Part shown: positions 43,855 to 57,922 of the stretch, piece after piece
How positions within the stretch are numbered: position 1 is the stretch's first letter
Layout: every line of letters starts with the position of its first letter
Source: Dehalococcoidia bacterium
GTDB lineage: Bacteria > Chloroflexota > Dehalococcoidia > Lucifugimonadales > G963668185
NCBI GenBank assembly: GCA_965237445.1
Contig: OZ250142.1
Coordinates: 176,153-240,152, forward strand
Length of the DNA stretch: 64,000 nt
Direction: 5' to 3'
Notes under the pieces: generated by a model
Databases searched by the model: none
Seen by the model: only the letters and a program-made list of their open reading frames with translations
Told to the model about the DNA's origin: nothing
Translations under genes and position numbers: made by a program

Positions 43855-44700
43855 TCATTGGAGACCTTTGTTTCCCACCGGTTGGGGAAGGTCGTTCATG
43901 TTACGGCCCTTACGAACAGCCTGCGTCTCATAAGATTGTACATAAGTCCGCATGCCATTTCGGGACCTTGCCGCGCAAGACTCAAAGACCTTCTCACGAA
44001 TGGCCTATCACCCTCGCGCGCTGAGCGTATGGATCATCCGGCGAGAATGTTCCCCACCATTGATGAAGGCCCACCCCGACCTTCCCCACGAATGTTGGTT
44101 ACGCAAACGTTCCCCATGATGGAGACCTTTGCATAACTCCCGAATCGACCATTGGGCAGGCATTGCGCGACCTCCGGCCCCTTCCCCAGTCTGCTGGGGA
44201 AGGTCGGGATGGGGTTCTCTTCCCCACGAAAGTTGGTTACGCAAAGCTCGTCGCCGACGCTGGATACCCTCAGGGACCAACCTTGCCGACTGCGCGTCCT
44301 CCGGACACCGCGTGCTCATGCCAGACACCCATGGAGACCTTCGCATAACCCCCGGCAACACCTCATCTTCAAACACGTTCAGAAGAACGGCTACAGACTC
44401 AGGCCACAAAATCCCCGGTCGTTCCATAAGAGTCAGCGAATACGAACCGGAGTTGAGACGACACAGAGAGTTGATGTCTACCGAGGCTGCCAGATCGATG
44501 TACAAGCGGCGTCAGGGGCTGGTCGAGCCGGTGTTCGGCCTCCTGAAGGAATGCCACGGCGCCAGGCGGTTCCTGCTGCGAGGTCGCGAGAACGTCCTCT
44601 CCGAGTGGTGTCTGCTGGCTGCGGCGTTCAACCTCAAAAGCCTTCATAGGGTCTGGAGTGCAGCCTCGCCGTCGGACTCGCCTCACACCGGCTCGCCACG
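43855..44700 (+). mobile_element. degenerate, internally rearranged IS1182/IS5-superfamily remnant
   Basis: Transposase-like fragments are KLVADAGY (about 44246-44269) and EYEPELRRHRELMSTEAARSMYKRRQGLVEPVFGLLKECHGARRFLLRGRENVLSEWCLLAAAFNLKSL (44438-44653). Duplicated pieces are TTCCCCACGAA(T/A)GTTGGTTACGCAAA at 44082-44107 and 44220-44245; GGAGACCTT(T/C)G at 43860, 44121 and 44333; and GGGGAAGGTCG at 43884 and 44196 with its inverse at 44077. Confidence 0.65.
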
Positions 44701-45154
44701 ACTACATCCACGCTGTGGTCGCGGCGCCATTGAAGCCACGCGCAACCACCACGTACCACGGCGGACGGCCCAACCATGCCTCGCCACTCGCCGACTCTAT
44801 ACTGTTTACCGGTCTTCGCCCGTCACATGCCCCTCCTCCCACAATCTCTGCACACCTCACGAAACTATGAGACACTACGTGGGAGAGGGTAACCGAGGGG
44901 GTGAGGGGGAGTTCCCGCTCCCATGATGGGAGAAGGCTGGACACTTCCCTTGGAAAGGGGACTCTCTATTGAAAAACCTAACCTGAGTCTCCCGAACTTT
45001 CAAAGACTTCTCAACTGCGACCAACGCCGCGCGGCAGACCCTGCCAATGTTCCCTACGCCTCTTGCTACAATTCCCTCCGAACAGCCAGATACGGAAGCC
45101 GCCTTGACCTCTTTCACAACAGCATCAACACCCCCTAGCCCTGGCACGGCCGCC

Positions 45155-48431: not shown

Positions 48432-48711
48432 CGCCACCAACCGCCGCACTTTCGACGCCTTAAGAAAAGGACCAGAACACCATCGCCCACTACCCACAAT
48501 CCCGGCAACCCAGCCCGTTCGTAGTGAGCCTGCCGAACCACAATTGGTGGCGACGAAGACACGCCCCGGATACCGTTCACGGAGTCCGAACACCCCCACT
48601 CGCCACTTCCATGCAGCGAACGCGTGTGCTACCATTAGCACATGAACCCAGCCGTCTATGCCACCAACCGCGTGCGAGCCGCAATGAAGAGCGTCCAAGC
48701 TACTCAGATTA

Positions 48712-48856
48712 GTCTCGCTCAAGTGTCACAAATGTGCGCGAACTGGCTCATTTTGTGTACTCCTAGGCTCAAAACTAGTCACCTTTTGTCACTCCAGACA
48801 GCGCCCTCCAGCTTTGGAACGTTACAAAATGTGACGGAATGTGACAGATTTGCGTA
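48712..48856. repeat. iteron-rich palindromic intergenic module A (core TGTCAC / GTGACA)
   Basis: Direct words are GTGTCAC (48723-48729), TTTTGTGTACTCC (48751-48763), GTCAC (48777-48781) and TTTTGTCACTCC (48785-48796). Inverted ATGTGAC at 48829 and 48839 are phased at 10 bp. The module closes with ATTTGCG and is homologous in architecture to 57521-57668. Confidence 0.7.
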
Positions 48857-49029
48857 TCTAACCCACTTCCAGCGCCTCTTCTCACTGGACGAGCGCTCTA
48901 AGTCCCGCAGCGCAGAAGACGAAAGAAACATCGATAGGCCCAGCAACTCCGCAGTGACTGCGCGCCAAACTTTCTTTCGCCTGCTTCACGGTCCGGGCCG
49001 CGTCCTGAGCGCAGCCAAAGGAGCAATGT

Positions 49030-49115
49030 CCAGGTGGCCGGTTTTGGCCGCTTTTGGCCGCCCCAGGAATGTTGGGCACCGCTTGCCAGGTTGGAAATGG
49101 CCGGTTTTGGCCGCT
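49030..49115 (+). repeat. pair of direct repeats CCAGGT...TGGCCGGTTTTGGCCGCT upstream of the Fe-S carrier promoter
   Basis: Perfect 18-mer TGGCCGGTTTTGGCCGCT copies lie at 49035-49052 and 49098-49115. Each is preceded by CCAGGT (49030 and 49086), and there is an extra TTTTGGCCGC at 49052-49061. Confidence 0.8.
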
Positions 49116-49154
49116 AGGGCCGGCAGTCCGCTGACCGACTGGTACCGGTTTCGA

Positions 49155-49184
49155 TTGACTACGCAACGCGATAATGCCTAGAAT
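49155..49184 (+). promoter_or_regulatory. sigma70-like promoter TTGACT-N18-TAGAAT
   Basis: TTGACT at 49155-49160 and TAGAAT at 49179-49184 lie about 60 nt upstream of ATG 49244, which has an AGGAGA RBS. Confidence 0.55.
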
Positions 49185-57201: not shown

Positions 57202-57520
57202 GGCGCTCACGCCCCTATCGTATCGCTGATGCCAGCCCAGAGAAAGCAGTCCGCACGGTATCGCCGCCAACGATGAGGGGCTTGCCTTCTACAAACATCT
57301 GTGCTATTATCAGTTCATGGATGTCGTGAAACTCGCCTGCCGCACCCGCAACGGAGTCCAGAGGGCTCCAGAAGGCTATTGCAGGAGCGCTCGAAATACC
57401 GCACCAAAACGTGGACTCTCTCTGCCGGCTGCTGAGACGCTTCCCAGATGCCTGTAGGCCCGATCAGCCTTTGGGCTCCCCTTTTGGGTCCCCTTTTGAG
57501 TGCAACGAAGGGGCCTCACG

Positions 57521-57668
57521 CTGCAAACGTGTTCCATTCGTGTTCCATTCATGCCCTGAATGTGCCCCGGTTAAGTACCAATCGTGTTCCAAAGCAGTCC
57601 CGCAAACCCCCCCAACCCAGCTACGAAATGGAACAAAACGGAACATAATGGAACACATTTTTGCGAAA
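57521..57668. repeat. iteron-rich palindromic intergenic module B (core TGTTCC / GGAACA)
   Basis: GTGTTCCATTC occurs twice in perfect tandem (57529-57539 and 57540-57550), and GTGTTCC again at 57584-57590. Inverted A(T/C)GGAACA at 57628, 57638 and 57648 are phased at 10 bp. The flanks are GCAAAC (57523-57528) and TTTTTGCG (57657-57664). The outer arms, GTGTTCCATT and AATGGAACAC, are perfectly complementary. Confidence 0.8.
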
Positions 57669-57922
57669 ACTAGCCTCCGTTGCGCACCCGCTTCCTGTTG
57701 AAGCTTTGCCGAAGCCTTCCACACTGCATTCGCAAGACCCAACTGCACACACGGCCAACTCTTTCCAAAGCCGCCCACCGTCGTTATGGGCCATCACAGA
57801 ATTGCCCGAAAAGTGTGGGACCTGCTCGGGCCCACATCACGTCTTGGGGCTGACGCAATTTAGGTCTCCCGCAATGCCGCCGCCAACTTGCGGTAACAGG
57901 TTAGGTCTGTCACGATTGTTGC

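Follow-up and report, generated by a model that had tools for sequence, protein, structure and literature searches.

A phased TGTTCC/GGAACA repeat array upstream of a PAC2 gene in a Dehalococcoidia bacterium as a probable gene-less relic of a terminase-like cassette

The stretch of Dehalococcoidia DNA analysed here (64,000 nt of contig OZ250142.1, referred to as the window) carries an array of short phased repeats at 57523-57668, referred to as module B. It lies in the spacer between a 143-aa hypothetical gene on the minus strand and a PAC2 gene on the plus strand, the latter followed by NUDIX, GNAT, FolC and FabF genes; a second such array, module A, lies near 48.7 kb. Homologues of PAC2 assign the window to Chloroflexota/Dehalococcoidia. 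As described below, module B is very probably a gene-less, pseudogenised copy of a Dehalococcoidia-specific family of terminase-like cassettes, which entered this spacer in the window's lineage only and has nothing specific to do with PAC2. The favoured explanation taken as a whole, in which the cassette relic is combined with a reading of its repeats as phased docking sites, is considered moderately probable.

Direct reading of the sequence and a pattern search agree on the positions of the six repeats reported in the first-pass annotation of this DNA. On the left, GTGTTCCATTC stands in perfect tandem (57529-57539, then 57540-57550) and a third plus-strand TGTTCC is found within GTGTTCC; on the right, three inverted units follow each other at a period of 10 bp, ATGGAACA from 57628, ACGGAACA from 57638 and ATGGAACA from 57648. 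TGTTCC is present three times on each strand, all within 126 bp and spaced 10-11 bp, a period that bears out the helical phasing proposed in that annotation. The outer units, GTGTTCCATT and AATGGAACAC, are 100% complementary, and the array is capped by GCAAAC at 57523-57528 and TTTTTGCG at 57659-57666. Because TGTTCC/GGAACA sites number 44 in the 64 kb (both strands), only ~0.09 would be expected in 126 bp; six are found there (Poisson P for six or more ~6e-10), so that the repeats are indeed non-random, and module B is the strongest local 6-mer cluster of the window. The parts of the array, all on the plus strand, are as follows, with RBS denoting a ribosome-binding site and ORF an open reading frame:

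57529-57617, +, left array: GTGTTCCATTC twice (57529-57550), degenerate units, and GTGTTCC (57584-57590)
57618-57628, +, stretch CAGCTACGAAA derived from a predicted RBS; counterpart in intact copies CAGCTAYGAGGTG or CAGCTAGGAGG
57628-57657, +, right arm: 10-bp units ATGGAACAAA, ACGGAACATA and ATGGAACACA
57638-57673, +, decayed ORF stub: ACG GAA CAT AAT GGA ACA CAT TTT TGC GAA AAC TAG, read as (T)EHNGTHFCEN*

The right arm, which the first-pass annotation had not recognised as coding, corresponds to the RBS and start codons of a decayed gene for a helix-turn-helix (HTH) protein resembling terminase small subunits. Its units share homology with the opening codons of the intact HTH gene, ATG GAA CAA AAC GGA ACA (MEQNGT), and the stub (T)EHNGTHFCEN* aligns with MEQNGTHLAENL of the intact protein encoded at locus L011 (3825-4217). 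The right arm of module B is in frame with the N-terminal motif MxQNxTxFAEN of this protein, and the gene itself is not intact: the start codon is gone, a stop is reached at codon 12 and nothing recognisable follows, identifying module B as a pseudogenised copy. In many copies of the family, the frame downstream of the right arm reads M-x-Q-N-x-T-(H/L)-(F/L)-A-E-N-L-T-Q-R-Q-L-A-A-L-P-H-L-L-R-P; it is open for 128-136 codons in L011, L029, L039 and L040 and broken after 6-50 codons in all others. This shared frame indicates that the units ATG-NNA-CAN-AAY-GNN-ACA are codons 1-6, and CAGCTAYGAGGTG or CAGCTAGGAGG is accordingly predicted from sequence to be the parent gene's ribosome-binding region. 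The codons for F-A-E-N make up the apparent palindrome TTTTCGCGAAAA. In these four copies and in L109, L110 and L111, the repeats span the promoter region and the start of the terminase-small-subunit-like gene, of which module B retains a relic only.

A hidden Markov model (HMM) of the repeat family, searched with nhmmer, matches the window only at 57523-57668 (E 5e-26) and 48642-48854 (E 5e-19), which establishes module A as a true paralogue, as had been proposed. Genomes were also searched, one per species, with a pattern that fixes only 18 right-arm bases, and the totals given here are lower bounds; at 57618-57628 this pattern fixes CAGCT and a G at position 8, and leaves the following purine-rich GAGG/GGAGG unfixed. 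The exact pattern is found in module B at 57618 and matches at least 87 loci; among the matches listed, 71 are in metagenome-assembled genomes of Dehalococcoidia and 16 in other taxa. The latter 16, and one viral match, have neither exact left-arm repeats nor the remaining architecture and were taken as chance. At least 17 copies are present in OZ253485.1, at least 13 in OZ220745.1 and at least 8 in CBDHFB010000016, and from these matches each genome of soil Dehalococcoidia is predicted to contain dozens of copies of the family. Word searches of the literature returned no description of such a repeat family, which appears to be undescribed so far.

The family architecture consists of a sigma-70 promoter, a leader of ~150 nt with TGTNNCA units at an 11-bp period, the sequence CAGCTAYGRRR and three 10-bp units ATGNNACANA. 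Almost all Dehalococcoidia copies have the promoter and the left unit, neither of which is demanded by the pattern. The promoter (-35 TTGAAT/TTGCCC, 17-nt spacer, (C/T)GTGCTAYTMT) is found at a similar upstream distance in most of 76 copies, with two copies lacking it and ~8 in which it is weak or at an odd distance; on the left the copies are sharply delimited at a shared boundary, 11-14 nt upstream of the -35. They have CCTGTC(T/C)CATTTC or a variant as their first left unit, TGTNNCA periodicity peaks family-wide at lags of 10-11, 21-22 and 32-33 nt, and the left array, which in module B is the same pyrimidine-rich TGTNNCA array with a period of 10-11 bp, comprises up to ~8 units in other copies. 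A T-rich tract follows the last right unit in most copies, and ~25 copies measure 197-202 nt from putative start site to T-tract. Right ends are variable, from +47 to +172 among copies ~90% identical. The genes upstream and downstream of the copies are oriented -/+ in 15 cases, +/- in 14, +/+ in 12 and -/- in 11, an even spread which argues that the family is not the leader of the downstream gene.

Several other descriptions of the family were considered and set aside. Paired modules flanking cargo were rejected, as the pattern gives one module per 8-kb locus, with weak second copies at a few loci. At one orthologous locus in three genomes, a second, weaker copy lies ~150 bp upstream of the main one (L076 7426-7533, L086 4770-4877, L088 3604-3711), from which it follows that copies can sit in tandem. 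A leaderless small ORF starting at the ATG that follows the promoter was rejected because a large subfamily lacks this ATG and the encoded peptides show no conservation. No tRNA or tmRNA was found. A replication origin is excluded by the copy number, and no GC-skew switch is seen at 48.7 or 57.5 kb; the partition or replication iterons suggested earlier are likewise not supported, as no rep or par genes are nearby and each genome has dozens of loci.

Module B is not the free-standing 140-bp palindrome first described. The repeat sites are real, and they form the core of a unit that runs from the promoter at 57282 to at least 57673, within a lineage-specific segment of 606 bp:

57262-57271, no strand, left 10-bp direct repeat CGCCGCCAAC, one of an exact pair 616 bp apart
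57272-57877, +, lineage-specific segment of ~606 bp bearing module B, delimited by alignment with relatives
57282-57310, +, sigma-70-type promoter: -35 TTGCCT, 17-nt spacer, extended -10 TGTGCTATTAT; putative transcription start site near 57317
57317-57528, +, variable 5' leader, ~150 nt longer than canonical and without a conserved ORF
57674-57877, +, remainder of the segment, including a G+C-rich hairpin at 57814-57836
57878-57887, no strand, right 10-bp direct repeat CGCCGCCAAC, exact partner of the left copy

The promoter is the sole promoter-like site of the region (9/12 matches plus TG), and it lies at -318 instead of the usual ~-165 to -220 because the leader has an extra ~150 nt; this leader contains a 12-bp tandem, TTTGGGCTCCCC/TTTTGGGTCCCC, at 57470-57494. 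The segment's left end, GATGAGGGGC-TTGCC, falls at the boundary found family-wide on the left, upstream of the -35 hexamer. Similarity to other family copies or to the HTH gene was sought in 57674-57877, and no matches were found past 57670. The hairpin near the right end of the segment, TGTGGGACC-tgctc-GGGCCCACA, has no T-tract.

Module B is present and unchanged in four near-identical strains (L001-L004). The segment is absent from three related lineages, L010, L005 and L006-L009, whose PAC2 identities are 94, 92 and 88%, respectively; the six sites are not retained in these orthologous intergenic regions, where gene order is kept, the spacer between the hypothetical gene and PAC2 is only ~100 bp, and a single uninterrupted ...CAAC|TTGCGG junction stands at the position of the segment. 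The simplest history suggested by this alignment is a single gain in the window's lineage, and the alternative is a precise loss, which may have occurred by recombination between the 10-bp repeats; the repeats themselves may be a target-site duplication or microhomology. This comparison of filled and empty sites rests, for the family, on one empty site. In one strain, a 1.5-kb insertion sequence (IS) of the ISLre2 type, with a UPF0236 transposase and inverted repeats of ~22 bp AACCTGTCCCAGATTAGTAGGC, is inserted exactly at the left boundary of the segment (L003 7860-9343, window ~57272) with a flanking duplication of about CGCCAACGATGA. It was rejected as a relative of module B, as it has its own inverted repeats, lies 250 bp upstream and leaves module B intact.

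The other family copy of the window has kept its place in relatives, upstream of a gene for Fe-S assembly:

48610-48860, +, module A, paralogous family copy of the GTGACA/GTTACA type, identified by the family HMM; position kept in relatives

Its promoter motif is TGTGCTACCAT at 48625-48635. The elements found at this position in relatives are of the GTGACA type in L007 and L010 and of the TTGCAT/ATGCAAC type in L005, the latter being a member of a different subfamily, the one dominant in its own genome, which suggests replacement or gene conversion among family copies. Downstream of module A, a phased repeat TGGCCGGTTTTGGCCGCTTTTGGCCGC is found at 49035-49060 and 49098-49113; similar GGCCG repeats follow the copies L071, L072 and L085 and there encode WPxLAAFGR in the frame of the decayed ORF, and the repeat is probably a coding-sequence relic and not a second set of iterons. 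Tandem and dispersed repeats of the GTTCGCCCTGAGCCTGTCGAAGGG type occur in L005 (800-1500), in the window (48515-48545) and in L010 (700-900), with units of ~130-260 bp in L005 upstream of its module A; these are a separate repeat family of these genomes. Elsewhere in the window, a fragment of a DDE_Tnp_1_6 transposase (IS1182-like) at 44008-44926 is probably what remains of a decayed IS, TCCCCA-rich repeats being present at 44051-44195, and a 9-bp unit containing CCAGCC is present in four tandem copies at 418-445.

The protein encoded by the intact gene belongs to a family with 64 members in the protein collection, mostly of 130-138 aa, in which the N-terminal MEQNGT is retained even at 35-45% identity. 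It matches PHROG 2538 (terminase small subunit, E 5.6e-10) and further small-terminase PHROGs; the L011 protein matches the Pfam families PF13022 (E 1.2e-5, slightly short of the cut-off) and Sf6_terminase (E 4.6e-3), and a precomputed PF13022 match exists for eight family members. In an AlphaFold model (pLDDT 77), two long helices come after an N-terminal HTH. In Foldseek, the best PDB match (probability 1.0, TM ~0.45-0.5) is 2AO9, a phBC6A51 phage protein whose deposited structure has nine chains, and the viral matches are headed by phage small terminases and phBC6A51-type homeodomain proteins. The protein resembles PF13022 (HTH_Tnp_1_2) and 2AO9 in having an N-terminal three-helix HTH and then long helices, and differs from them in its conserved MEQNGT N terminus encoded by repeats. 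On the viral contig L108, the gene for a homologue (PF13022, E 2.8e-29) takes the position of the terminase small subunit (TerS), directly upstream of the genes for TerL, a large subunit of the Terminase_3 family, and for a portal protein of the SPP1 type. The viral relatives are ~40% identical, and only within the first 52 residues. A PADLOC match (PDLC04133 mad1, E 0.011) covering 16 helix-turn-helix residues was treated as noise, and the sole match in a PDB sequence search, to a HEAT-like motif at residues 77-106, was likewise set aside.

The HTH gene is followed by a conserved partner gene of ~89-102 aa in L011, L039, L040, L109, L110 and L111, which are close relatives, and in the distant L100 and L103:

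L011 4240-4525; L100 6411-6695; L103 6568-6873; L109 1896-2201: ~95-aa partner gene

Searches with this protein found 34 homologues, all lacking source annotation, and no Pfam, PHROG or PADLOC match; no catalytic domain was found in it or in the HTH protein of full-length relatives. Genes of several kinds adjoin individual cassettes. A HicB-like ribbon-helix-helix gene (L103 5716-5979, minus strand) is divergent from the distant HTH homologue and begins with ATGGGACAGA, within a left-array unit on the opposite strand; beyond it is a 333-aa gene with no Pfam match, in a position corresponding to that of the N6_N4 methylase gene upstream of the HTH gene in L110. In L111, an Mrr-type nuclease gene is upstream of the HTH gene.

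An intact cassette consists of a sigma-70 promoter, a leader of ~150 nt with TGTNNCA units phased at 10-11 bp, a predicted RBS, three 10-bp units containing the start codon, the gene for an HTH protein of 130-138 aa resembling phage small terminases (phBC6A51/PF13022 type), and the conserved gene of ~95 aa. The six TGTTCC/GGAACA sites of module B are very probably the phased units of such a control region, with the right arm representing the former RBS and first codons, and module B very probably arrived in the spacer between the hypothetical gene and PAC2 as a 606-bp segment flanked by a 10-bp duplication. Description of the array as a multi-site operator is reasonable for the intact parent gene, as a control region of its own; it is not so for PAC2 or the hypothetical gene, given the absence of module B from three lineages and the lack of orientation bias.

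In SPP1, direct repeats in three sets are reported to extend over the promoters and the start of terS at the pac site; the small-terminase ring is reported to space neighbouring HTHs by about one B-DNA turn, and wrapping of bendable DNA, ~100 bp of it, round the terminase ring has been proposed (PMC4737164). The arrays described here share position, phasing and a similar length (~130 bp) with this site, and are read for that reason as candidate docking sites for an oligomeric HTH protein. It is a tentative but serious possibility, drawn by analogy, that the phased units of the intact cassette are docking sites for an HTH ring, forming a pac-like or autoregulatory nucleoprotein site that would cover the promoter-proximal region and the start of the gene, as in the SPP1 pac region. 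As no terminase is encoded nearby, the arrays most likely would serve autoregulation or another nucleoprotein role. The likeness to SPP1/SF6 pac thus lies in repeats of 10-11-bp period that occupy ~130 bp and run up to and into the start codons of a small-terminase-like gene. Unlike pac, the cellular cassettes adjoin neither a large terminase nor portal or other phage genes, the partner is a ~95-aa gene of no known family, dozens of gene-less copies are present per genome, and the final three or four units have the opposite orientation to the others; any cleavage and packaging at these sites would be by analogy with pac.

A possible trace of protein specificity is seen in the intact genes, in which the three start-region units change together, and with the recognition helix, in four classes. 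G-R-T-T is paired with GGAACA units in close and distant homologues alike, N-R-T-T with GCATCA/GCAACG, A-R-A-T with GAGACA/GAATCA and H-R-N-T with GTGCAA. With only four classes, this apparent matching of units and recognition helix is a lead and not a result.

The evidence on whether orphan copies such as module B function is mixed. Those keeping promoter and repeats may still recruit the HTH protein or fire a short transcript. In favour of function, the promoter and first left unit are kept in copies whose leader and stub have diverged past alignment, the promoter is 89.7% identical in a four-genome orthologue group compared with 73.6% for the adjacent flank, and the same G/C change is present in the three left and the three right units between module B and its nearest relatives.

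A number of observations weigh against the docking-site reading and, in part, against the cassette reading itself. In the same orthologue group, the left array is 79.8% identical, similar in rate to the unconstrained spacer at 73.6-78.6%, and in one strain an IS5/IS427-type element with DUF4096 and DDE_Tnp_1 ORFs (L002 1-790, window ~48666-48710) lies inside module A, parting its promoter and leader from the repeat arrays; at least this copy therefore tolerates disruption, and together these two points imply that orphan copies may be dispensable. The conservation of the right arm is partly imposed or inflated by the search pattern. In the intact genes the first left unit is constant, TGTC(C/T)CA, while the right units vary, so that one protein specificity cannot explain both arms, nor would a simple wrap round one ring predict the inversion of the right arm. 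The DNA-binding domains of SF6 TerS reportedly have little sequence specificity for pac DNA (PMC4737164). As to the assignment of the protein, the PF13022 score of L011 is just below the cut-off (25.9 against 27.9 bits), and tblastn of the HTH protein against GenBank phages gave no match. No large terminase was found next to the cellular cassettes, whose neighbours are cellular genes or IS elements, and no intact HTH gene of the subfamily of modules A and B was seen among the copies listed.

Of the rival explanations, one that is unlikely though the best supported is an RNA element, in which a transcript of ~200 nt (~350 nt in module B) would pair its pyrimidine-rich left units (UGUUCCAUU) with the purine-rich right arm containing RBS and AUG, forming a translational autoregulatory or sensor hairpin in the intact gene and, in orphan copies, a small non-coding RNA ending at the U-tract. 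The near-universal promoter, the uniform 197-202-nt length of ~25 copies and the T-tract behind the last unit in most copies are all consistent with such a transcript. The arms of module B fold as this model predicts, and in 34 of 70 copies the first left unit has a fully complementary partner among the right units; in the intact L011 and L040 it covers the AUG. In the remaining 36 of the 70, however, the 7-nt core has mismatches (one in 30 copies, two in 6), and RNAalifold found 0 consensus pairs among 26 canonical copies, contrary to the compensatory variation by which the first-pass annotation would have recognised a structured RNA. The intact L109 and L111 have changed right units and an unchanged left unit, and thus show no compensation. 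The left units number up to eight, against only three on the right, and the 10-11-nt phasing has no obvious purpose in an RNA hairpin. The whole-transcript fold has a z of -1.2, and Rfam is empty: the window gave no matches at gathering thresholds, and the element at an E-value threshold gave two at chance level (E 7.6 and 7.9).

A little less likely again is non-autonomous mobile DNA, either like a MITE (miniature inverted-repeat transposable element) or one-ended, whose internal repeats would bind a transposase or recombinase supplied in trans. The MITE had been among the first-pass suggestions, and the plain form of it finds much of what was asked of it in the multiplicity of the copies, the 10-bp flanking duplication and the absence of module B from relatives. 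Dozens of dispersed copies per genome, a presence/absence polymorphism with a 10-bp flanking duplication (a single case, that of module B), a sharp shared left boundary equal to the left end of the module B insertion, variable right ends as in one-ended elements, and the member of another subfamily at the module A position in L005 all point this way. Against this, the 606-bp segment has no inverted repeats at its ends (GATGAGGGGC... and ...CCCGCAATGC), the palindrome lying in its interior; the copies are not consistently accompanied by a transposase gene, and the IS elements nearby are unrelated insertions with their own ends. A search for flanking duplications around the intact cassettes found none, the comparison covers only one empty site, and conservation is focused on the promoter and repeats instead of being evenly spread. 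Like MITEs, BOX and REP/BIME elements, the family is short, non-coding, multi-copy and intergenic, and has an insertion polymorphism; pneumococcal BOX elements are modular with a variable number of internal units, a further likeness. The family differs from all of these in deriving from the 5' end of a protein-coding cassette, in having a conserved outward-reading promoter at one end, and in the absence of terminal inverted repeats and of any known cognate transposase.

It is distinctly improbable, if the cassette origin is extended further, that the terminase-like protein and its ~95-aa partner are a domesticated or selfish system that seeds phased sites at dozens of positions. Such sites would serve either pac-like packaging initiation for the terminase of a gene transfer agent or helper phage, or the loading of a ring-shaped nucleoid protein, with the unit dinucleotide co-evolving with the recognition helix (GGAACA, GTGACA and GCAACA specificities). 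Were the packaging version of this proposal true, much of the chromosome would become transducible.

Least likely is a host operator, in which a cellular regulator would occupy the six sites and control PAC2 and/or the divergent hypothetical gene; an example would be a response regulator of the OmpR/PhoB type, which binds head-to-tail repeats of 10-11 bp. Module B does sit between divergent genes, and GNNACA with an A/T-rich spacer at 10-11 bp resembles the direct-repeat operators of winged-helix response regulators, OmpR/PhoB-type units having a core of ~6-7 bp plus an A/T-rich spacer. Pho boxes and Streptomyces PhoP sites share with the present arrays several units of 10-11 bp per array. The direct-repeat units of Streptomyces PhoP are 11 nt (PMC2275107). 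Unlike these operators, however, the arrays lie downstream of the promoter, which is atypical, and run into the coding start, and their candidate binder is a terminase-type HTH protein and not a winged-helix response regulator. Relatives keep both genes with a spacer that lacks module B, copies are found in convergent, divergent and tandem spacers alike, and the units run on into the decayed ORF; judged from the sequences, the empty orthologous sites largely refute this reading.

For annotation, the favoured explanation, in which module B is the relic of a terminase-like cassette, carries the caution that such palindromes are not regulators of adjacent genes and that ORFs across them, such as 48642-49181, are spurious. 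If it is true, soil Dehalococcoidia carry a new dispersed repeat family that comes from the control region of a phage-terminase-like gene and not from a transposon, and a pac-like or operator region has been multiplying without its gene. The family would then account for many of the unusually long intergenic regions of these genomes, and its natural series of variants (GGAACA, GTGACA, GCAACA, GAGACA), with their recognition-helix variants, would provide a means of testing how ring-shaped HTH proteins read phased DNA.

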